Source: a virus. From it: 64,000 bases of DNA. The stretch spans positions 28,751 to 92,750 of the IMG/VR virus record IMGVR_UViG_3300042569_001787. One strand, given 5' to 3'. The translations under genes were made by a program, and so were the position numbers. This document shows positions 5,102-43,007 of the stretch, piece by piece. Below the pieces are notes generated by a model. The model ran no database searches, was not told the DNA's origin, and was given only the letters and a program-made list of their open reading frames with translations. Numbering within the stretch: position 1 is the stretch's first letter; every line of letters begins with the position of its first letter.

Positions 5102-5175
5102 GGCTTCGTAGCTCAATTGGACAGAGCAACACACTTCTAATGTGTAGGTTACTGGTTCGAATCCAGTCGAGGTCA
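5102..5175 (+). tRNA. tRNA-Arg(TCT)
   Basis: Acceptor ggcttcg/cgaggtc, anticodon loop c-t-TCT-aa, GGTTCGAATCC T-arm. Confidence 0.93.
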
Positions 5176-5189
5176 CTAAAATTTATTAT

Positions 5190-5441
5190 ATGGGAAGACA
5201 TGACAATATCTTAGAACAAGAACACAACGAGTTTGTTAATAGCGAACTATTTTGTCAAATGATTACGGAAAAAATAGAAAATTCACATTTTCATAAATAT
5301 GATGGTATAACACCTGAAGGGTTTTTACTTATACCCGAACAAACCTTAGAAAGGTTGAAAGATTTTGAAACTTGGAAAGAGTGGAAAAATAATCCATCAA
5401 TTTTAAAAAAAATGATGATTGACGATTTAAAAAATGAATAA
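5190..5441 (+). CDS. Hypothetical protein
   Basis: 83-aa ORF. Confidence 0.55.
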   Translation: MGRHDNILEQEHNEFVNSELFCQMITEKIENSHFHKYDGITPEGFLLIPEQTLERLKDFETWKEWKNNPSILKKMMIDDLKNE

Positions 5442-5479
5442 TTTTTTTGTAGATTAAAAAAAAATAGTACATTTGTGGT

Positions 5480-6187
5480 ATGAAATATTCAGCACTTAAA
5501 GACATCGTTTATATTGGTTTGATGGTTTTTGTTATCGGAGGAACCAATGAGTATTTGGAAAAATACGACTATAGTTATGACAAAGTAATGGGTTCTTTGG
5601 AGTCTGAGGCAAAAAGACTTGACAAAGTTTACGGTTATGACAAGAACTATTCAAAAGAAGAAGAGGTTAAAATTACTGATTCAAAACAACCATCTTCAAC
5701 TGAAGTTAGTTCTGACCGAGTAATCAACATCCACGGTTTTGGTAAATATACTCAAAGTGACCTTTATACAATCAAAGAAGGTGTTGAAAACTTCTACGGT
5801 ATCCGTTGTGTCATCTCTGAAAGTGTTGAGTCAGATGATTTTTACTATGACAATAACACTAACGTATTATTAGCGTACAAAGTATTAACATTATCTGTTG
5901 GTAAATCAAATATGAATATGTATGTTACTGACGAACCATTATGTAATGAAAATTCTAATGATTTGATTAGTGGACACGCAAGAATTAATTGTGACGGCTC
6001 TGTTATCAGTACTAAAGAAATGAGAAACAACAATCACTATAATAATACTAGTTTAGTTCATACTGCGGTACACGAATTAGGACATAACTTTGGGTTATCT
6101 CACTGTAATAACCAATCTTGTATCATGAAATCTCACGGTTTAGACACTAAAGAGTTCTGTAATGAGTGTAAATTAAAAATTAATTAG
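5480..6187 (+). CDS. Membrane-anchored zinc metalloprotease (archaemetzincin/M54-like)
   Basis: N-terminal hydrophobic segment; HELGHNFGLSHC..CIM and C-terminal CxxC. Confidence 0.8.
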   Translation: MKYSALKDIVYIGLMVFVIGGTNEYLEKYDYSYDKVMGSLESEAKRLDKVYGYDKNYSKEEEVKITDSKQPSSTEVSSDRVINIHGFGKYTQSDLYTIKEGVENFYGIRCVISESVESDDFYYDNNTNVLLAYKVLTLSVGKSNMNMYVTDEPLCNENSNDLISGHARINCDGSVISTKEMRNNNHYNNTSLVHTAVHELGHNFGLSHCNNQSCIMKSHGLDTKEFCNECKLKIN

Positions 6188-6212
6188 TGATAATTTTTTT
6201 ACATCAATAAAC

Positions 6213-6241
6213 AAAAAAAGGGGGATAATTCCCCCTTTTTT
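6213..6241. terminator. Bidirectional intrinsic terminator
   Basis: aaaaaaaggggga-taat-tcccccttttt between convergent genes. Confidence 0.75.
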
Positions 6242-6262
6242 CTTTGATTTGGTATTTATCAA

Positions 6263-6427
6263 CTATTTCTTTTTAGAAATAATTGACCACACACCACCTA
6301 CAAGTGTAACCGCTGCTCCGATAAGTTCTTGTACTGATGAATCAGTTGCAAGACCTTTCATAATCAGGATACCACCTACAAAAGTAAGTGCGTGTCTAAC
6401 GATACCTTGGATTTGTTCTTTAGTCAT
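6263..6427 (-). CDS. Small two-TM membrane protein, holin-like (54 aa, not in ORF track)
   Basis: MTKEQIQGIVRHALTFVGGILIMKGLATDSSVQELIGAAVTLVGGVWSIISKKK; TATTTAT motif upstream on the minus strand. Confidence 0.7.
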   Translation of the reverse strand: MTKEQIQGIVRHALTFVGGILIMKGLATDSSVQELIGAAVTLVGGVWSIISKKK

Positions 6428-6484
6428 TTTTAATGTTGATTAAAGGTTTATGCCAGACTATAAATATCAAAAAAATAGTAAAAC

Positions 6485-6520
6485 AGTCTTTTGGTCTAAT
6501 GGTAGGACCCGTGGTTTTGG
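6485..6520 (+). pseudogene. 5' half remnant of a tRNA-Gln(TTG)
   Basis: agtcttt-tg-gtctaatggtaggac-c-cgtgg-tt-TTG-g, then abrupt AT-rich sequence with no T-arm. Confidence 0.5.
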
Positions 6521-6606
6521 GTTAAAAGATAAAAATTTTAATTTATTAGTTTAATATTTTTCGCACAAGTAGACTCCGATTACAAAATTTTTTGTATCTT
6601 TACAAT

Positions 6607-7101
6607 ATGAAAGACTCACTACCATATTGTAATACAGAAAAAGCGATTAAAGGTTATGAAGAATCCCAAATTGCGAAAAATGAAAAAAATGATTGTGTTG
6701 TAAGAGCATTCGCATCTTGTTTTGATGTGTCTTACAATTATGCTCACGGATACGTTAGAGATAACTTTGGTCGTAATAACCGTCAAGGAACTTATGGTAC
6801 TGTAAATAAAATGACCAAACTTGCGGAGAATAGAACTCAAATAAATTACAAAAAAGTTAAATGTGTTGGTAAATTAAACAATTACAATAGACGCACATTA
6901 GAATATACCGTTAACGTAAAGGGTGAAAAGGTTAACCGTAAAATGACTGTTGGTACTTTTACAAAACAAAACCCTGTTGGGACATTTTTTATGTTAGTTA
7001 GTCGTCACGCTTTCACAATTAAAGATGGTGTTGTGATTGGTAACTATGAAGATTCAACCAAGAAAAAACGTATATTGTTTTATGCGTTTGAAGTAAAATA
7101 A
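6607..7101 (+). CDS. Hypothetical early protein (possible Cys-His hydrolase)
   Basis: ATG 4 nt after TATCTTTA promoter box; NDCVVRA...RHA motifs. Confidence 0.6.
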   Translation: MKDSLPYCNTEKAIKGYEESQIAKNEKNDCVVRAFASCFDVSYNYAHGYVRDNFGRNNRQGTYGTVNKMTKLAENRTQINYKKVKCVGKLNNYNRRTLEYTVNVKGEKVNRKMTVGTFTKQNPVGTFFMLVSRHAFTIKDGVVIGNYEDSTKKKRILFYAFEVK

Positions 7102-7158
7102 TAAAAAATATTTTACAAATTGTTTGGCAAATCAAAAGTGATTATATATCTTTGTGAT

Positions 7159-7359
7159 ATGGAAATAACAATTAACATACCCAATAGTGTTCTTAATAGA
7201 ATGAAAGAACTCAAAATTACAGACGAAAATATTCAAAAAGAAATGGTAATTGATTTTATCAACGACTCTTTGGACTCACATTACGCCAACGGAATGTTTG
7301 ATAAATTCAGAAAATGGACATTAAAAAATGATAATTTTGAAGTTTATTTGGTAGATTAA
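7159..7359 (+). CDS. Hypothetical early protein
   Basis: In-frame ATG 4 nt after TATCTTTG. Confidence 0.55.
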   Translation: MEITINIPNSVLNRMKELKITDENIQKEMVIDFINDSLDSHYANGMFDKFRKWTLKNDNFEVYLVD

Positions 7360-7452
7360 AAAAAGTTTGTATCTTTGTAAGGCAAACAACGGGGGTAGGA
7401 AGTGAGAGGTTGATGTCCTACTCCCGTAAAGAAAGAAGAAGTTCATTGACAT
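7347..7452 (+). promoter_or_regulatory. Bacteroidota-type promoter, leader hairpin and boxA-like site of the tRNA operon
   Basis: TTTG 7347, TATCTTTG 7370-7377, hairpin cgggggtagga/tcctactcccg, GTTCATTGACAT 7441-7452. Confidence 0.65.
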
Positions 7453-7459
7453 TAAAATA

Positions 7460-7552
7460 TTGTGGTGGTAAGAAACGGGAAACTTGTAAAGTACATTAAC
7501 CTGTTGACATAAGATGGTGAAACGAGAGTGTGTGTCAGCTACTTAACTGCAA
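7460..7552 (+). ncRNA. Unassigned structured RNA at the head of the tRNA operon
   Basis: Ends pair (ttgtggt..taag / ctta-actgcaa); inner stem gttgacata/tgtgtcagc; no ORF. Confidence 0.4.
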
Positions 7553-7558
7553 ATAAAT

Positions 7559-7632
7559 GGTAACTATAGCTCAGTTGGTAGAGCAAAGGTTTGTGGTACC
7601 TTGTGCCATGGGTTCAATTCCCATTAGTTACC
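7559..7632 (+). tRNA. tRNA-His(GTG)
   Basis: Encoded G-1 and C73, anticodon loop tt-GTG-gt, canonical D and T arms. Confidence 0.93.
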
Positions 7633-7644
7633 CAAAAAAAATAT

Positions 7645-7718
7645 AGTTAATTAGCTCAGTTGGTTAGAGCAATTCCCTGATACGGAATAGGTCATTGGTT
7701 CGAGTCCAATATTAACTA
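7645..7718 (+). tRNA. tRNA-Ile(GAT)
   Basis: Acceptor agttaat/attaact, anticodon loop ct-GAT-ac. Confidence 0.93.
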
Positions 7719-7723
7719 CATAT

Positions 7724-7796
7724 CGCGGGATGTGGAAATTGGTCATCCGCTCGGTCTCATAAGCCGAGATTACAGGTTCGAGCCCTGTTCCCGCAA
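7724..7796 (+). tRNA. tRNA-fMet(CAT), initiator type
   Basis: cgcggga/tcccgca with C1:A72 mismatch; anticodon loop ct-CAT-aa. Confidence 0.88.
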
Positions 7797-7804
7797 CAAC
7801 AAAA

Positions 7805-7864
7805 GGGTAGAATATTCGTAAGGGCCTTTCCTGAAAGATGGCTAGCTAGGCCCGTGTCTACCCT
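7805..7864 (+). ncRNA. Unassigned 60-nt structured RNA between tRNAs
   Basis: Outer stem agggtaga/tctaccct, inner stem gggcct/aggccc. Confidence 0.45.
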
Positions 7865-7871
7865 GATTTTT

Positions 7872-7943
7872 GGTCCCATCGACTATCGGTTAGGTCGTCA
7901 GGTTTTCATCCTGGAAAGTCGGGTTCGATTCCCGGTGGGACTA
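7872..7943 (+). tRNA. tRNA-Glu(TTC)
   Basis: Acceptor ggtccca/tgggact, anticodon loop tt-TTC-at. Confidence 0.93.
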
Positions 7944-8056
7944 CTATAGCCAACCAAGCTTTACTACGATAAGGGTTCATACCTTGACTTTACTAAATAA
8001 ACGCTTAATAGAACAAAGTACAAGTTCAGAGTGAGGAGCGGGTCTCACAAACTTTT

Positions 8057-8129
8057 GGTCCCGTGGTTGAATGGTTACAATTCCACCCTGTCACGGTGCG
8101 AGATACGGGTTCGAATCCCGTCGGGACCG
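8057..8129 (+). tRNA. tRNA-Asp(GTC)
   Basis: Acceptor ggtcccg/cgggacc, anticodon loop ct-GTC-ac. Confidence 0.93.
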
Positions 8130-8152
8130 CAAAATAATGAATAATAACTATT

Positions 8153-11041: not shown

Positions 11042-11733
11042 TGGAAAAATTTATTAACCCAGCCCCGTATGGTAATATGAAATCATCTATGATGTCAAAA
11101 TCTGTTGATTTAATTGCATACCCAAATTCAAAATTAATAAATCCGTATGACGGTGTTATTATTTTTGACAGAACACCTTCTTGTGAAAATTTTATTAAAA
11201 TTAAACATGAGTTTAATGGTGATGATATATATTCCGAATTTTGTAATGTCGGTAAATCATTTGTTTCACCAGGCGATAGAATAAAACAAGGTCAAATTAT
11301 TGGGTATTTCACTGACGATAGAATTAGTTACTCAATAAAAAACAATGATGATAAAAAATTAGACGTATCAACATATCTAAAAGGGGTTGGTCCTAAAAAA
11401 GAAGAGCCTAAAAAAGAAGAACCTAAAAAAGAAGAACCTAAAAAAGAAGACCCTAAAAAAGAAGACCCTAAAAAAAATAAACCAATACAAGATGACCCTA
11501 AACTTGATAATGACCCTAAACTTGATATTGGAAATAAAAATGTTGGGTCTGGTAATGTTTTCTTAGACACATTATTATCCCCATTTTCAATTGCCAATGA
11601 TATTACCAAAGGTGTCGGTAAAAACATCAAAGGTGTCGGTAAAAACATTAAGACAGCTTTCAAAGAAGATTATGGTAATAATAAAAGACTTGTCGAACAA
11701 ATAGATAAGATTAAAAAAATTATAAATAATTAA
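11041..11733 (+). CDS. Degenerate M23-fold protein with KKEEP repeats
   Basis: NPYDGVI..IKH..VSPGDRIKQGQIIG scaffold lacking the HxH zinc ligands. Confidence 0.6.
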   Translation: MEKFINPAPYGNMKSSMMSKSVDLIAYPNSKLINPYDGVIIFDRTPSCENFIKIKHEFNGDDIYSEFCNVGKSFVSPGDRIKQGQIIGYFTDDRISYSIKNNDDKKLDVSTYLKGVGPKKEEPKKEEPKKEEPKKEDPKKEDPKKNKPIQDDPKLDNDPKLDIGNKNVGSGNVFLDTLLSPFSIANDITKGVGKNIKGVGKNIKTAFKEDYGNNKRLVEQIDKIKKIINN

Positions 11734-11776
11734 ACAATCCCCCTTTTTTAGGGGGTTTTTTTTCTTTAAAAAAAAA

Positions 11777-12000
11777 TTTAGTAAATCAAAAAAGTTTACT
11801 TATCTTTGTACAACAAAAGAGATAGATAACAATTCAGATACAAATCTTAAAAAAAAAATAAAAAAAGATTTGGTAAATCGAAAAAGTTTACTTATCTTTG
11901 TACAACAAAAGAGATAGATAACGATTCAGATACAAATCTTTAAAAAAAATAAAAAAAGATTTGGTAAATTGAAAAAGTTTACTTATCTTTGTAAAACAAA
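11777..12000 (+). repeat. About 2.5 tandem copies of a 91-92 bp unit, each carrying a Bacteroidota promoter
   Basis: TATCTTTG at 11801, 11893 and 11984, each preceded by ttt(a/g)gtaaat..aaaaagtttact. Confidence 0.9.
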
Positions 12001-12017
12001 TCGGAAGAGTCCGAAAC

Positions 12018-12029
12018 GTTCTTTGAAAT
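12018..12029 (+). promoter_or_regulatory. boxA-like antitermination site
   Basis: GTTCTTTGAAAT, resembling rRNA-operon boxA. Confidence 0.55.
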
Positions 12030-12069
12030 ATTATTATCCATTACAACACTTCGGTGTTGTATAAAAGAT

Positions 12070-12877
12070 AATCGGCCGTATATGGTCGTTAAATAAACCT
12101 CGAAAGGGGGATAAAGTGAAATCATCGTGTTAATGGTTTTGCGGTTCGGGTAACCGAACTCGAGTATACAAGTGGGATATCAGTGAGCCTGTAGTACCGA
12201 GGATAACTTCGTAGGGAAATGGAAAACTGAACGGGCAATGTGGATTGTCAGTTTGAGGTGGGAACACCAATAAGAATAACCCATAGGGGCCAAGTGAGAA
12301 GTGTACTCCAAATACACAATTGCGGGTCCCAATATAAGAGGTGACTTAAAACCGAAGGGATAAAACCTGAAGGTAAGATAGAGAACGAGTGGTGTCGCTA
12401 ATATCCTTACCACAGACCCACCAAGGTCTTGGTACGAAGTAATCTTAAAATATGAGAGTGGGGACACTCTACCGAGTAGAAAAGTATCTTGTTGTTCAAA
12501 AGACAACGAGGCTTAAGACGGACCTCTACTTGGAATCATCCACAACACATAACTTATACTAAATTTAAGTAAAACTAAAATAACTATAAGCAAAAGTGTT
12601 CGTCAGGTTTTGATGAAAGTCGCCTACATAGTCATGAGTTGTTCATGGCATACCGAGACCGCAAGTCAACGTATATTGTTACCAAAAACCTCTAAGGAGT
12701 CGAATCCTAAGTCAGTTCGCAAGATTGAGGAGAGTAGAGTAGTAATAGAGTAGTTAAAACCTTAAGAAGTGATTGGTCTAACCAATCGGCGATGAGGATT
12801 ACCATTCAAAAGATGGTGGAAATGAAGGGAAACAATAATCCTTCTAAAGATTCTCACAAAACGGTGTATTCTCAGCC
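12070..12877 (+). ncRNA. Large structured ncRNA, GOLLD-like
   Basis: ~810 nt with no credible ORF, raised GC, many hairpins with GNRA-type loops, two halves joined by an AT-rich linker (~12545-12590), strong promoters upstream and terminator downstream; family name from size, context and recalled motifs only. Confidence 0.65.
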
Positions 12878-13019
12878 CTTTTTAAAATTACCCAATATAT
12901 AGAATACGATTTTTAATCAAACCTCAATAATCTTGGGGTTTTTTTATTTTAAAAAAAGTTTTGTAATTTAATTTATGTGTATAAAAAAACCCCACCTTTT
13001 TAAGATGAGGTTTAATTAG

Positions 13020-13406
13020 TGGAGGTAGAGGGGTTCGAACCCTCGTGTTGTACACCTTACCTATTAAGGACTACACGCTTAGGATAACATTTTCTAATGT
13101 TCCAAAAATAGTTAGTTCGTTCTTCACCATCGTAAACTAACAACCAATGGATGACTCAATTTTGGGTTCAGTCATTTTTCCACCCTTGTAAAGACTTCTG
13201 TTCCTAGGTTGTATGTCCACCGACCCGTATGGTTGTTTCCTATATGTTAGGCAACTACCGCAGCGTCTTCACGGATTAATCCGATTGTCGCCATTTTGTT
13301 TAAAACGTTTCCGTTTACTGTTTACATCCGTAGATTTAAGTGAAAGGATACATCTCACTGCGTGCCCCGAATAACTAACAATGCCAGTCAATTCCAAGTT
13401 ACCCCC
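13020..13406 (-). ncRNA. ssrA: tmRNA
   Basis: 5' GGGGGUAACUUGGAAUUGAC; 3' T-arm GAGGGUUCGAACCCCUC-UACCUCCA with G3.U70; tag frame 13312-13247 GNVLNKMATIGLIREDAAVVA*. Confidence 0.92.
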
Positions 13407-13408
13407 AT

Positions 13409-13440
13409 ATTTTAAAGAACTTATTTCTTGTACAAAGATA
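13409..13440 (-). promoter_or_regulatory. Promoter and boxA-like site for tmRNA
   Basis: Minus-strand TATCTTTG (13433-13440) then GTTCTTTAAAAT (13409-13420). Confidence 0.65.
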
Positions 13441-13494
13441 GTAAAGTCTTATTAATTACCAAACTATTTTATATTTATATGTAAATAAATATTT

Positions 13495-14859
13495 GTGAAA
13501 GATTCAAAAAATGCTAAAATAATATTTGAAAACGAGTATGTTGTATTTGTACAGGTGTTCAACAAGAACGCGGCCACATATTACGGACCTCCAAAAGTTA
13601 CTGAATTATATGACCGAGATTTTAGTCATGGTGAATTATTTTTTGCCGTAAGTAAATTTAATCCTGGCCCTGAATATATATATACACTATACAAACCTAC
13701 AGACGGTGAACTTGAATACTATTCAGGTATTGAATTAAAACTTGAAAGTTACGATAACATCACATTTAAGTATCCGTACTTAAAACCCTATGTCCAAGAT
13801 ATTAGAGGAAATAGTGAAATATATGATTTGTTATTGAAAATTAAAAATGGTCAAAAGGTAAATAACTGGGACGCTAATAACTTTGACCCAATCGTATATG
13901 ACATCAAATTTAATGAACAAACACCGGGTAAGAGTAGAGTTAAATTAAAATTTGACAATTATGAGGATTATTGGAAATTATTTGACCTATCTGATGGAGA
14001 TATTTGGTTTGCAAATTACGTATATTCTAATTATGAGTCCTACGATTTTGAAAGTGGAGATTTTGTTGATGAGGATTGGAAAAGAGGTTATTTATTACGT
14101 GAATTAAATGATGAAAACCTAATTAAATTAAAAGAAATTTTAAAAATACTATCACCAGAACTTTCACAATTACGAAATGATGAAGAATGGGAAAAATCGT
14201 CTAGTTTATTATTAACAACATTTGAACGTGAATCTCAGGAAATTATGTCTGATTGGTTGTCAGAAAGAAATAACTGTAAAGAACGAGGTGCCCGTAAGAT
14301 GATGGAAGACGACTGTTGTAATTTTTTCCAAAATTATGGAATATTCAATATGGGAAATTGTTTTTATAGTTATGTGACGACAGTATCGGTGTTATTATCT
14401 TTATATTCAATGACGGGAGAAAGACATTTAACGGTTAGTGAGGTTTTAAGTGATATTGGACATAAATCAGGCAATATTGGTGGATGGGAAGAATATTCTT
14501 ATGAACAAGATTGTATTGATTTTGATGATGAATCATTTAATCGTACTTGTGGTTGGCAATTAGATAATATGTTTACTAAACTTGAAGACTCTGACGAATT
14601 TGAGGATATTAAAAAATTCTCAGATAATGCGTCAAAAATTTTAAGTAAGTACGATATGGAAACTAATTACAAATTACCCAAAGACGAATCAAGAAATTTT
14701 AAAATAGTTAAAATGAACCCAAAAACAAATAAAGTCCATGTTGTGGTTTCATTAAAAGGTGGGTATCGTGGAGAAGAAAGAAGTTATGATTTTGAAGACT
14801 TTGACCAACTTTTACATCAATCGGAATTATTTGAAAATAAATTTGTCAAAGTCAAGTAA
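13495..14859 (+). CDS. Hypothetical protein
   Basis: 454-aa ORF with TATTTAT motif upstream. Confidence 0.7.
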   Translation: MKDSKNAKIIFENEYVVFVQVFNKNAATYYGPPKVTELYDRDFSHGELFFAVSKFNPGPEYIYTLYKPTDGELEYYSGIELKLESYDNITFKYPYLKPYVQDIRGNSEIYDLLLKIKNGQKVNNWDANNFDPIVYDIKFNEQTPGKSRVKLKFDNYEDYWKLFDLSDGDIWFANYVYSNYESYDFESGDFVDEDWKRGYLLRELNDENLIKLKEILKILSPELSQLRNDEEWEKSSSLLLTTFERESQEIMSDWLSERNNCKERGARKMMEDDCCNFFQNYGIFNMGNCFYSYVTTVSVLLSLYSMTGERHLTVSEVLSDIGHKSGNIGGWEEYSYEQDCIDFDDESFNRTCGWQLDNMFTKLEDSDEFEDIKKFSDNASKILSKYDMETNYKLPKDESRNFKIVKMNPKTNKVHVVVSLKGGYRGEERSYDFEDFDQLLHQSELFENKFVKVK

Positions 14860-15906: not shown

Positions 15907-17949
15907 TTATTCAACCCCTTTTCTTTTTCGTGTAACTTTCTTCACTTCTTTAAATTTAACATCCCCATTTTCACTAATTAACGTATATTTAGTGTTTTCT
16001 TGAATGTTACTCTTAAGAACTTCTTCCGATATAAAGTCTTCAATTTTATCTTGAATAGCCCTTTTCAATGGACGAGCCCCATACATGTCATCAAACCCAA
16101 CCTCAGAAATCATATCGACAAGTGAGTCATCAAATATTATATTATATTTAAGACCCGTTAATCTTTCTGATAAGACACTCAACTCAAGTTTAACAATTTT
16201 TTTAACATCTTCTTTCACTAATGAATTAAAAATAATGACTTCATCAATACGGTTTAAAAATTCAGGGGCAAAAAACTTCTTAAGCTCTTTCTTCAAAACT
16301 TCTCTTTTTTGTTCTTCTTCAACGTAAGAACTTGAGCTAGTTTTAAACCCTACTCCAGCACCAAAATCTTGTAGTTTCTTAACCCCAACATTTGATGTCA
16401 TAATAATAATACAGTTTTTGAAATTAATCTTTCTTCCCATACCATCAGTTAGATGACCGTCATCCAACACTTGTAATAATGTTGAGAATATGTCTTTGTT
16501 TGCTTTTTCAATCTCATCAAACAAAATTACTGAGTAAGGTTTGTTTTTAACTTGTTCGGTTAATTGTCCTCCTTCATCATAACCAACATATCCTGGAGGT
16601 GCTCCAATTAATCTTGAGATACTATGTTTTTCTTGATATTCAGACATATCTACACGAATCATATTTTCCTGACTACCAAACATTTGTTTTGCTAATTGTT
16701 TTGCTAAGTAGGTTTTACCCACACCTGTTGAACCAAGAAAAATAAATGAACCAATTGGTTTATTAGGGTCTTTGATGCCTAATCTGTTTCGTCTGATTGA
16801 CTTAGCGATTTTCATAACCGCCTCAGATTGCCCAATAACTTTATCAGATAAGTTTGCCTCCATTTCAGACAATAATTTAGTTTCATCCGCATTTAGTTTA
16901 CTGATAGGGATTTTGGTCATATTTGAAACAACCTCATAAACCAATTCAATAGAAACTTCTTTCTTCTTAACTAAAAGTTCATCTTCAAATTTTTTCTTCT
17001 CAACATCTAATTTATTAAGAATACGTTTTTCTTTATCACGTAAATTTGCAGCTTCTTCGTAATTTTGTTTTTTAACAACATCAAGTTTTTCAATTTTAAC
17101 ATCTGTGGCCGCTTGTTTTAATTTTTCAATAATCTCAGGCATTTTAATTTCAACCTGACATCTTGCACCAACCTCATCAATAATATCAAACGCTTTATCA
17201 GGGAACTCTCTATCCGTGATATATCTTGCGGCCAAATCAACACACACAGAAAGTACTTCATCAGTATAGGATACCTTATGGAATGTTTCGTACTTATCTT
17301 TAACATTTTTAAGAATCTCTAATGTTTCTTCTTTTGTTGAAGCGTCAACAATAACTTTTTGGAAACGTCTTTCTAACGCTCCATCCTTCTCAAAGTTTTT
17401 ACGATACTCATCAAGAGTTGTAGCACCAACACATTGAATTTCTCCACGAGCAAGTGCTGGTTTAAAGATATTTGACGCATCTAAAGAACCTGATGAATTA
17501 CCCGCCCCAACTATAGTGTGAATCTCATCAATAAACACAATGATATTTGGGGCGTTTTGTAATTCCTCAATAATTACTTTCATACGTTCCTCAAACTGAC
17601 CACGATATTTTGTACCCGCAACTATTGAAGTCATATCCAACGATACAATTCTTTTATCCATTAAATTTCTTGGACATTCGCCGTTAAAAATTTTAATTGC
17701 CAATCCTTCTACAATTGCAGTTTTACCACAACCAGGCTCACCAATAATAATAGGGTTGTTTTTCTTTCTACGAGAAAGAATTTGGGCAATCCTCGTAATT
17801 TCTCTCTCTCTACCAACAACAGGGTCTAATTTACCTTGTTCGGCTAATTTAATTAAATCTCTACTGAAGTTATCCAACACAGGTGTTGAAGAGTCAGATA
17901 TTGATTTAGGTGGGTTATTCTTCCCCCCGTTGTCCACAGATTCTATCAT
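15907..17949 (-). CDS. clpC: ClpC-type AAA+ unfoldase lacking the N-terminal repeat domain
   Basis: Two AAA modules (GEPGCGKT, GSTGVGKT), UVR-like middle domain, VGF ClpP-docking loop; starts almost at 'LDNFSRDL'. Confidence 0.9.
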   Translation of the reverse strand: MIESVDNGGKNNPPKSISDSSTPVLDNFSRDLIKLAEQGKLDPVVGREREITRIAQILSRRKKNNPIIIGEPGCGKTAIVEGLAIKIFNGECPRNLMDKRIVSLDMTSIVAGTKYRGQFEERMKVIIEELQNAPNIIVFIDEIHTIVGAGNSSGSLDASNIFKPALARGEIQCVGATTLDEYRKNFEKDGALERRFQKVIVDASTKEETLEILKNVKDKYETFHKVSYTDEVLSVCVDLAARYITDREFPDKAFDIIDEVGARCQVEIKMPEIIEKLKQAATDVKIEKLDVVKKQNYEEAANLRDKEKRILNKLDVEKKKFEDELLVKKKEVSIELVYEVVSNMTKIPISKLNADETKLLSEMEANLSDKVIGQSEAVMKIAKSIRRNRLGIKDPNKPIGSFIFLGSTGVGKTYLAKQLAKQMFGSQENMIRVDMSEYQEKHSISRLIGAPPGYVGYDEGGQLTEQVKNKPYSVILFDEIEKANKDIFSTLLQVLDDGHLTDGMGRKINFKNCIIIMTSNVGVKKLQDFGAGVGFKTSSSSYVEEEQKREVLKKELKKFFAPEFLNRIDEVIIFNSLVKEDVKKIVKLELSVLSERLTGLKYNIIFDDSLVDMISEVGFDDMYGARPLKRAIQDKIEDFISEEVLKSNIQENTKYTLISENGDVKFKEVKKVTRKRKGVE

Positions 17950-28734: not shown

Positions 28735-28821
28735 ATTTTTTTGAGTTTATATTTATTTTGACTATTGCTGTAAATATACCTATTTTTCTAAAAACAATAA
28801 ACTTAAAAATTATGAAATTTA

Positions 28822-41099: not shown

Positions 41100-43007
41100 T
41101 TACATTTTTTTACCAAAAGAACTCGCAGGAACTGTCAGACCTGCTGGGGTCATTGTTAATGCCCCTACCGCAATTTGTACCTTACCATTTTCCGCCTCTT
41201 CCGAAGCCATAGCTTTCATCTGTCCTAACATTTTTAAAACATCTAAATTAGGACTTCCGTCAGGCATTGGTCCTGTTGGAATACCAAGTTTTTGCATTTC
41301 CTCAATAGCCCCAATAAATGCTCGAGTTTCAGAATACCCTCCCGCAAATTGAGAAGCAAATAATAGAGGTAATGGTATATCACCACCCCAACCTGTTCCC
41401 GCAATTTTTAACAACCACAGAATTTCATCAATAACACTTTTACATTTACGCCAATCTGAAATAAACTGAGCGACAATAATGATAAGTTGGATTAATTTTA
41501 AAATTATAATAATTCGTTTATCCAATTTTTCTCTGGCAACGTCTTGGATTACCGATTGTATTAAATTCAAAATATCTTTTTTAATTAGATAAAAAAGTTC
41601 TTTAACAAATAACGCTCCAATTTTTGATATTAAATTTATAAAAAACTTTTTAAAGGTTTTCATAAAATCAACAAATGAATTAACACCATCAACAAATGTT
41701 TGACCTATTGACTTTAACATTACAAATATTGGTAATAATATTTTTGGAGATAGTAGAGCGGCGGCAATTCCTTGAACAATTAATTTAAGGAAGTTTAAAT
41801 CTACCGCGGCTTTAATATTACCCTGAATAGCAAATCCTTGCCATTCGGGATTATTAATTAACGTTTGAGTTAACGCATCCGCAGCATCAACTAAGTCCTT
41901 ATCCTCAATAAAATTTAATGTACCTAAATCATTTAGAATATCATCATAATTAACCGGTAATTTAACATTACCACAATCTTCAAATTCAACCACACCATTT
42001 TTAATGTTAGTAACTCTTTGGTCTATATTACGTAAATCAATATCTGTGAATTCAAAAAATGACTCATCAATATCGTCTAATTCCGCCAATTTTGCAATAC
42101 CACTAACATCAATTTCTTTTTTATTGTCAAAACATAAACCTAAAACCCTTTGGATTATCATCATAAATTTACTAGTATCTTCGGCTTGAGCAACACCAAC
42201 ATTAGCACTAATAGATATCGCCCCGCTTAATGACTCCATAATATTTGCCATAATATTTGTAAACTCAACAACCTTAATTGTTCTATAATAATCCGCTAAA
42301 AAAGTACCAACCTTATTAATACTACCTATTCTATTTGCAAGAGTTACCTTAAACCAATGTCCTGTCTCACCTAAAGCGTTTATAGTAACGTATTGAATAT
42401 CAAATAATGCTTGTCCTGATTGACCAATATATTGTGCTCCATTATCGGTTGAATAAGGGTTACCACTTTGTATTCTTTCATATAATTCTTTATTCATTGA
42501 GAATGGATAAAGTTGTATTGCAATTGGGTTTTTTTCGTATAAGACTTTTCCATCTTTACTTGCAGGTACTTTCTTTAATAGATTGATTAAATCTATTGAA
42601 CTTACTTTGACATAGATTACCTGTGCGGCATATGTTTGTTGTTGGTCACAGCCAACAGCGTTTATTGCTTCTTCCTGAAGAATTTCGATGATTTGAGGTT
42701 CAATATTCTTAATAGTTCTAATTAATGTTTTTTTAACGTAACTAATTGTACTAGCACCTTTACCGCCAGTAAGGTTATTAATGTCTAATAATTGTTCAAA
42801 TTGATTTTTGATTTCTTTTTGAAATCTTTTAGTTTGTTCTTTAACTTTATCTAAAGATTCTGTAACGTTTTCTTTTGCAGTATCAAAAGACTCTCCGGCA
42901 GTTTTAGAGGTGGTGTCATATTGAGATTTTAAATCTTTGTATGAGGTTGTTGCCGAAATCTTTTTTTGAGCGGATTTATAATCAACCCCTAAATCTAATG
43001 AGCCCAT
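41100..43007 (-). CDS. Hypothetical structural protein
   Basis: 635-aa ORF with hydrophobic helices. Confidence 0.65.
   Translation of the reverse strand: MGSLDLGVDYKSAQKKISATTSYKDLKSQYDTTSKTAGESFDTAKENVTESLDKVKEQTKRFQKEIKNQFEQLLDINNLTGGKGASTISYVKKTLIRTIKNIEPQIIEILQEEAINAVGCDQQQTYAAQVIYVKVSSIDLINLLKKVPASKDGKVLYEKNPIAIQLYPFSMNKELYERIQSGNPYSTDNGAQYIGQSGQALFDIQYVTINALGETGHWFKVTLANRIGSINKVGTFLADYYRTIKVVEFTNIMANIMESLSGAISISANVGVAQAEDTSKFMMIIQRVLGLCFDNKKEIDVSGIAKLAELDDIDESFFEFTDIDLRNIDQRVTNIKNGVVEFEDCGNVKLPVNYDDILNDLGTLNFIEDKDLVDAADALTQTLINNPEWQGFAIQGNIKAAVDLNFLKLIVQGIAAALLSPKILLPIFVMLKSIGQTFVDGVNSFVDFMKTFKKFFINLISKIGALFVKELFYLIKKDILNLIQSVIQDVAREKLDKRIIIILKLIQLIIIVAQFISDWRKCKSVIDEILWLLKIAGTGWGGDIPLPLLFASQFAGGYSETRAFIGAIEEMQKLGIPTGPMPDGSPNLDVLKMLGQMKAMASEEAENGKVQIAVGALTMTPAGLTVPASSFGKKM

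Follow-up and report, generated by a model that had tools for sequence, protein, structure and literature searches.

Genes and features of the locus

We analyzed a 64,000-nt stretch of viral DNA (positions 28,751 to 92,750 of IMG/VR virus record IMGVR_UViG_3300042569_001787), referred to here as the window. It carries one gene for a large RNA of the GOLLD family, preceded by tandem promoters and followed ~140 nt downstream by a convergent tmRNA gene (Table 1). Six tRNA genes lie 4-7 kb upstream of GOLLD, and cell-wall peptidases and a ClpC-like ATPase are encoded beside the RNA genes. The record comprises 92,750 bases, including genes for a portal protein and a major head protein. CheckV rates it 32% complete, which suggests a genome of ~290 kb. 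Thus, both the association with phage and tRNA genes and the convergence with tmRNA, claimed in a preliminary description made from the sequence, were borne out.

Table 1. Coordinates of the RNA genes, control elements and other features discussed in the text
Feature	Position	Strand	Remarks
tRNA genes (six)	5102-8130
boxA-like element, GTTCATTGACA	7441-7451	+	after promoter of tRNA operon
Three tandem copies of 92-nt unit	11767-12000	+	period 92, 2.6 copies, 94% matches
-7 boxes, TATCTTTG	11801-11808, 11893-11900, 11984-11991	+	Bacteroidota-type promoters, one per unit
Predicted GOLLD leader	11997-12073	+	hairpin at 12001-12014; boxA-like element; UUCG-capped hairpin at ~12043-12062
boxA-like element, GTTCTTTGAAA	12018-12028	+	GOLLD leader, between two hairpins
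GOLLD RNA	12074-12878	+	805 nt
GOLLD 5' domain	12074-12471	+	398 nt, ~20 helices; invariant stretch AAACCUCGAAAGGGGGAUAAAGUG; conserved GAAA loop
First hairpin of Rfam model, read as P14	12472-12532	+	Rfam alignment positions 1-61; loop UCAAAAG with A-run
Variable linker, J13/15	12533-12602	+	70 nt, 74% A+T, 49% A
Core of conserved 3' domain	12603-12878	+	Rfam alignment positions 137-416
Terminator-like hairpin and T-run	12919-12949	+	~40 nt past GOLLD 3' end; terminator scan
tmRNA terminator	13013-12987	-	terminator scan
Phage tmRNA	13017-13406	-	RF00023, 72.1 bits, cut-off 47
boxA-like element, GTTCTTTAAAA	13410-13420	-	after tmRNA promoter
tmRNA promoter	13433-13463	-	Bacteroidota-type pattern
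ClpC/ClpB-like double AAA+ ATPase	15907-17949	-	59% identity to Flavobacteriales proteins
boxA-like element, GTTCTTTAACA	41597-41607	+	fourth match in the window

The closest bacterial matches of the ATPase are proteins of Crocinitomicaceae and Phaeocystidibacter, a likeness that is either a clue to the host or the mark of a gene acquired from it. Judging from sequence, the phage probably infects Bacteroidota, with hosts resembling Flavobacteriales. The tmRNA was missed by ARAGORN and found by Rfam at 72 bits. Its acceptor stem contains a G3:U pair, and the gene, which reads ...UACCUCCACUA, does not encode CCA.

Identity and extent of the RNA

A scan of the whole window with Rfam covariance models matched GOLLD (RF02032) at 12472-12878 on the plus strand, with a score of 324.3 bits and an E-value of 4e-92. 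The match runs end to end (model positions 1-416 of 416) and scores more than twice the curated gathering cut-off of 150 bits, in agreement with the GOLLD-like identity first proposed. There is one copy in the 92.7-kb record. Models for ROOL, RNase P and group I/II introns had no match, either in the whole window at gathering score or in 11700-13500 at E ≤1. This permissive scan of 11700-13500 returned GOLLD and the tmRNA, and otherwise noise at terminators.

The Rfam model describes only the conserved 3' half of GOLLD, and hence the start of the RNA, placed at 12070 in the preliminary description, depends on the 5' half. We set the RNA at 12074-12878 because the conserved paired region begins at 12074. 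The ~810-nt structured non-coding RNA reported for 12070-12877 is thereby confirmed with slightly shifted ends, on the evidence of the Rfam match, covariation, folding energy and G+C content. The RNA consists of the 398-nt 5' domain, the 61-nt P14 hairpin, the 70-nt linker and a 276-nt 3' core. None of 20 shuffled sequences folds as well (z = -2.97), and the G+C content is 41%, versus 32% for the window. In size and architecture the RNA agrees with RF02032 (~700-850 nt, in which a variable linker connects a 5' domain of lower conservation to the 3' domain). It also agrees in location, lying in a virus record with portal and head genes and having tRNAs and a tmRNA nearby. The locus is a genuine GOLLD copy and an ordinary member of a known family whose cages have been published.

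The 5' domain is conserved in structure

A blastn search of 12000-12900 against database phages found two genomes deposited as 'uncultured phage', LR756502 (642 kb) and LR745206 (635 kb), which align from ~12081 on, through both GOLLD halves. An invariant 24-nt stretch common to the three sequences, AAACCTCGAAAGRGGGATAAAGTG (window 12095), is present in 36 IMG/VR contigs. Thirteen of these were scanned with Rfam, and all 13 carry GOLLD. We searched 112 further loci (among the matches listed) with an nhmmer profile of the 5' domain, which in 97 of them lies directly before the 3' domain, the two abutting within ~4 nt. Nearly all the remaining loci among those listed are cut by the end of the contig. 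Homologs of the 5' domain thus occur in >100 IMG/VR phage contigs, besides the two database phages.

We then assessed base-pairing in an alignment of 17 non-redundant sequences, 62-100% identical to the window. RNAalifold predicts 191 pairs for the whole RNA, with compensatory changes in 115 of them. Taken separately, the 5' domain has 115 predicted pairs, arranged in 20 helices. Here, 96.7% of alignment cells are paired, compared to 81% in shuffled alignments and ~40% when partners are slid. Pairs changed on both sides number 64 of 115, compared to 44 in shuffles and 8-20 when slid, and the covariation score is 0.534, compared to 0.224 and 0.07-0.12, respectively. Because the pairs come from a prediction on this very alignment, they are somewhat favored in these comparisons, yet the margin is large. 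Compensatory changes occur throughout the 3' core as well. RNAalifold also paired the extreme 5' end with alignment columns 831-833; we dropped these long-range pairs because they do not vary.

These data bear on two alternatives. One, the fallback of the preliminary description, is a new class of large ncRNA that merely resembles GOLLD. The first 400 nt indeed have no catalogue match of their own, the Rfam model covering the 3' half only. But the 3' half fits the GOLLD model over its full length, with a score more than double the cut-off, and in the 97 loci mentioned above this 5' domain is again followed by the 3' domain of GOLLD. Moreover, published GOLLD RNAs are likewise built of a variable 5' domain followed by a conserved 3' domain (10.1101/2024.12.08.627333, PMC12990946). 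We reject a new class, for which the chance is now minimal. The other alternative is that a minus-strand ORF at 12180-12506 encodes a protein, and that the RNA-like features are incidental. A frame of 108 aa is open there, yet it is not conserved as a gene: among 17 relatives, the longest frames do not agree in strand, reading frame or position. Substitutions track base-pairing rather than codons, and the covariance model matches the plus strand. That this ORF accounts for the locus is next to impossible.

The linker and candidate bridging loops of the 3' half

In the hairpin read as P14, all 17 aligned sequences have CAAAA in the loop, which is also conserved among the variants listed for 93 full-length copies, and the stem carries compensatory changes. 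Within the 3' core, a long-range helix joins 12603-12612 to ~12749-12763. Two neighboring hairpins are enclosed by one helix; we read the first, with the loop GUCGAA, as P21a and the second, with the loop UUCGCAAGA, as P21b. Among relatives, the loop at the P21a position alternates between GUCGAA and CGCAAG, and the loop at the P21b position has a GC core. Thus, candidate bridge loops (UCAAAAG, GUCGAA/CGCAAG, the GC core and GAAA) stand at the places expected, with helix names taken from the text of published descriptions. The helix-by-helix numbering (P14, P21a and P21b) is assigned by analogy and should be read as provisional.

The linker had been called short, AT-rich and free of an embedded tRNA. 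All of this holds: neither ARAGORN nor Rfam found a tRNA in 12533-12602. As a distinctive trait, the claim fails. The linker is the norm for the environmental clade, because its counterpart in the Rfam consensus has ~75 unpaired positions and 93 relatives are alike in this respect.

At the 5' flank of the linker, 12537-12542 reads AUCCAC, which is conserved (AUCUAC in some relatives) and complementary to an invariant GUGGA(U) at 12816-12821. A tertiary or transient pairing may be formed by these segments, as their sequences would permit. As a candidate helix the pairing is unsupported, with only a one-sided C-to-U change and no compensatory change seen. AUCCAU, similar to the linker motif, occurs in the leader (window 12034-12039) of 49 of 95 loci among the matches listed.

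Presence in lake RNA libraries

We compared 11700-13500 with sequencing runs from lakes. Its sampled words are 88-97% present in 14 lake-water DNA runs versus 41-45% in six lake metatranscriptome runs. Four lake RNA runs yielded zero-difference contigs at 12270-12480, 12371-12465, 12451-12853, 12519-12797 and 12768-12876, and tmRNA contigs at 13014-13398. Hence the exact GOLLD sequence is present in four lake RNA libraries, as contigs only. Such assembled contigs reveal neither the strand nor the ends nor the level of an RNA, and DNA may be carried over into RNA libraries. At that level of evidence, the exact-match contigs agree with the expression as a stable RNA that is expected of RF02032. 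The preliminary description was to be abandoned if there were no covariance-model hit, no covariation and no expression; what we found is a match, covariation and presence in metatranscriptome libraries.

Word depths of the contigs run into the hundreds on GOLLD and amount to 9-55 on the tmRNA and 3-5 on the leader, values that cannot rank the genes. As evidence on the predicted transcribed leader, its depth of only 3-5 is a weak hint. No contig of the four runs falls on 11700-11880, 12920-12980 or 13408-13500, an absence that proves nothing. Contigs of two RNA runs stop at 12875/12876 and one continues into unlike sequence; the stops are at most a weak hint of the GOLLD 3' end. One contig of 396 nt and word depth 54.5, from metatranscriptome run X17, joins 13014 back to 13379. 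This corresponds to a circular tmRNA path of 366 nt, leading from just past the 3' end to 27 nt inside the 5' end. It could reflect a circularized or permuted RNA or a chimeric assembly, and was seen in one run only.

Might the copy be silent or decaying, with library matches that come from contaminating DNA or from GOLLDs of other phages? Contigs cannot prove transcription, and many others in the RNA runs are GOLLD variants of co-occurring phages (90-95% identity class, with loose ends). Yet several contigs match with zero differences over 95-403 nt, and the RNA runs contain under half of the words, versus nearly all in the DNA runs. The promoters, the terminator and all conserved helices are intact. 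We consider a silent copy highly improbable.

The contigs also raise the question of whether GOLLD is 12472-12878 only, with the preceding 400 nt forming a separate RNA or a long leader outside the mature molecule. In all four RNA runs contigs break at 12451-12480, and none extends 31 nt into both domains. But an identical break in every run, with a 30-nt overlap of contigs, is what an assembly-graph branch point among co-occurring variants gives. The domains abut within ~4 nt in the 97 loci described above (among the matches listed), scans for the promoter pattern and for terminators found neither between the two domains, and the solved GOLLDs are single chains that contain both (10.1101/2024.12.08.627333, PMC12990946). 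A division into two RNAs is accordingly very unlikely. The locus is almost certainly a stand-alone GOLLD gene of the full two-domain, 'environmental' type, in a large uncultured freshwater phage.

Relatives in other phages

A search pattern for the 3' core (GTGGA-N7-GGAAA-NN-ATAATC-N5-AAAG) matched at least 119 IMG/VR contigs, several of them 260-345 kb in length. Among the matches listed, we obtained 93 distinct full-length copies of 778-845 nt (median 802). With lengths of only 778-845 nt, none of these 93 can fit a tRNA in the linker. All 15 relatives scanned with Rfam exceeded the GOLLD cut-off, at 270-327 bits. In the closest relatives (L039, L021, L031 and L029) the convergence of GOLLD and tmRNA is kept, and in more distant ones (L004, L006, L017, L019 and L038) GOLLD lies within arrays of at least 20 tRNAs. 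Either setting is already familiar for GOLLD genes.

The two database genomes, LR756502 and LR745206, are among the largest phage genomes in the database. GOLLD lies at 434.3-435.1 kb of LR756502.1 (L002; 275 bits) and at 420.4-421.3 kb of LR745206.1 (L003; 287 bits), and both were deposited without annotation of it. In LR756502.1, ~10 nt separate the GOLLD 3' end from the start of a tRNA, an arrangement suggesting that the 3' end of this GOLLD is set by tRNA processing. We found no literature linking GOLLD with huge phages in the library searched.

In prokaryotes, the 5' motif had no exact match among 185,579 species genomes. The 3' pattern had two matches in prokaryote genomes, one spurious and the other in a contig of a Saprospiraceae MAG (CAZNNX010000034.1; L256). 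In this contig, positions 645-753 correspond to the terminal ~110 nt of a 3' domain resembling that of GOLLD (E 5e-21). The match is limited to this 3'-most part although the contig extends 640 nt further upstream. Either a GOLLD fragment or a divergent GOLLD may be present in this Bacteroidota MAG. These scans of prokaryote genomes gave no prophage link of GOLLD to a host.

The control region resembles that of rRNA operons

Each copy of the 92-nt unit upstream of GOLLD carries one -7 box. The -33 box is TTTG in two of the three copies and TTTA in the first, and matches to the Bacteroidota-type promoter pattern TTTG-N17-21-TAnnTTTG precede GOLLD at 11869-11900 and 11960-11991. This pattern occurs 16 times in the window, versus 5.1 expected. 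Close relatives have two or three promoter copies. Having three promoters is a local trait of this phage group, because most loci of the wider family have one box within 200 nt.

Bacteroidota-type promoters of all three stable-RNA units, namely the tRNA operon, GOLLD and the tmRNA, are shortly followed by boxA-like motifs. The four matches in the window compare to 1.55 expected, a count that is not significant alone (9 of 100 shuffles reach it). Across loci, a motif of the form GTTC[AT]TT[AGT]A[ACT] was found in the 200 nt before GOLLD in 89 of 95 distinct cases among the matches listed, whereas control windows from the same loci contain it in 33 of 950 (3.5%). Its flanks and its distance to the RNA vary among loci. 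The published boxA consensus, GYTCTTTAANA, is gamma-proteobacterial (PMC5725501); against this gamma-proteobacterial consensus, GTTCTTTGAAA of the GOLLD leader fits at 10 of 11 positions and GTTCTTTAAAA of the tmRNA leader fits fully. With the pattern used, the motif is found in 6 of 10 16S leaders of Flavobacteriales and absent from the other four. In Phaeocystidibacter luteus it is present as GTTCTTTAACA / GAAGTTCTTTAACATATTGCG, 115 nt before 16S and behind three tandem TAnnTTTG boxes. Motifs of the AACGTTCTTTAACATA type also stand directly before single tRNAs in the arrays of at least 20 tRNAs of the five distant relatives (L004, L006, L017, L019 and L038).

Leaders of bacterial rRNA operons have tandem promoters followed by boxA, and undergo antitermination by Nus factors (PMC5725501, PMC6614797). 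The GOLLD gene is laid out likewise, with an element of the GTTCTTTGAAA type. The likeness is confined to the control region of GOLLD, whose product is not rRNA; at the level of sequence it is real. From this likeness we infer that the GOLLD leader may depend on Nus factors. The preliminary description had the region 'expressed like an rRNA'. This is partly supported: tandem promoters and a boxA-like leader are there in the sequence, and their function is presumed. The conserved boxA-like leader is possibly a new detail of the locus, and the only one.

Comparison with known GOLLD RNAs and ROOL

The env-38 GOLLD RNA is 833 nt long and forms a D7 14-mer cage, as solved by cryo-EM (Kretsch et al., 10.1101/2024.12.08.627333; PDB 9MEE, listed in PMC12990946). 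Residues 1-420 form the caps and 421-833 the rings, and the linker is disordered inside the cage. The GAAA loop L11a is conserved, the A-run loop L14 makes an A-minor bridge, and L21a and L21b are self-pairing bridge loops, with the central dinucleotide of L21a alternating between GC and CG (10.1101/2024.12.08.627333). The RNA studied here resembles env-38 in having a ~400-nt 5' domain followed by the 3' domain, in length (805 versus 833 nt) and in its unstructured linker. By description, it has candidate counterparts of the A-run loop of P14, of the hairpins P21a and P21b with CG/GC loop cores, and of the GAAA loop. These loop features, together with the 805-nt length, fit the env-38 type. 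Both RNAs are of environmental origin and adjoin tRNA-type genes. Whereas env-38 is marine and lies downstream of tRNA-Met, the window copy is from a lake phage, with tandem promoters of its own and a convergent tmRNA.

The GOLLD RNA of Streptococcus agalactiae (listed as PDB 9L0R) is 700 nt long, forms a 12-mer and lacks P9, P11a-c and P21b (PMC12990946, a 2026 review, which also names the GOLLD linker J13/15). Our RNA shares with the GOLLDs of S. agalactiae and of a Lactobacillus brevis prophage the Rfam family, the conserved 3' domain and the association with phages or prophages. The host phylum is different. The window RNA is closer to env-38 than to the S. agalactiae form because it has two hairpins at the P21a/b positions and is ~100 nt longer than the latter.

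Mycobacterial GOLLD genes reportedly lie inside tRNA arrays, and their J13/15 linker contains a tRNA or pseudo-tRNA (PMC6582537; Morgado et al. 2020, cited in PMC12990946). Linkage to horizontally moving tRNA clusters is the common ground; more distant relatives of the window copy also lie in tRNA arrays. In contrast, the window linker is 70 nt and tRNA-free, and none of 93 relatives among the matches listed is long enough to hold a tRNA there. ROOL (RF03087), which forms an octameric cage, is similar in being a large phage-borne RNA found near tRNAs and in belonging to the RNA-only cage families. It is unrelated in sequence and fold, with no match at E ≤1.

Proposed mechanism and implications

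The arrangement of the locus suggests how the RNA may be made. Host RNA polymerase would start at the three tandem TTTG/TAnnTTTG promoters. The boxA-like element in the ~75-nt leader would then recruit a NusB/NusE complex for antitermination and folding, as in rRNA operons. The leader would be removed afterwards, and transcription would end at the predicted terminator downstream of the RNA. By analogy to solved relatives, the mature RNA is expected to self-assemble, free of protein, into a closed dihedral cage. This would most likely be a 14-mer like that of env-38, with 5' domains as caps, 3' domains as rings and the linker pointing inward; both cage and stoichiometry are extrapolated from two solved relatives.

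GOLLD has been reported to pull down ribosomes. Because of this, and because the promoter and boxA design is common to the tRNA operon and the tmRNA, we suggest with low confidence that GOLLD plays a role in the takeover of translation by the phage, for example by holding or shielding ribosomes, tRNAs or other components.

The window copy itself adds little, because the GOLLD family, its link to phages and its cage structure are already published. What the relatives add is breadth. Among large freshwater phages, full-length GOLLD of the env-38-like form is very common, with at least 119 IMG/VR contigs (several >250 kb). It also occurs in two database phage genomes of 635-642 kb whose records lack GOLLD annotation, and env-38-like GOLLD sequence is present in lake metatranscriptomes.

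A tentative extension, toward which we remain somewhat skeptical, is that GOLLD genes of Bacteroidota phages are mimics of rRNA operons, in which a conserved boxA, of the same type as in the 16S leader of the host, would let the Nus complex transcribe the cage RNA and fold it during transcription, as it does rRNA. If true, this would place GOLLD in one co-regulated stable-RNA module of the phage, aimed at the translation apparatus, and would give the GOLLD class a concrete dependency on the host. A functional boxA would tie the production and folding of GOLLD to the Nus machinery and to the tRNA and tmRNA genes of the phage.
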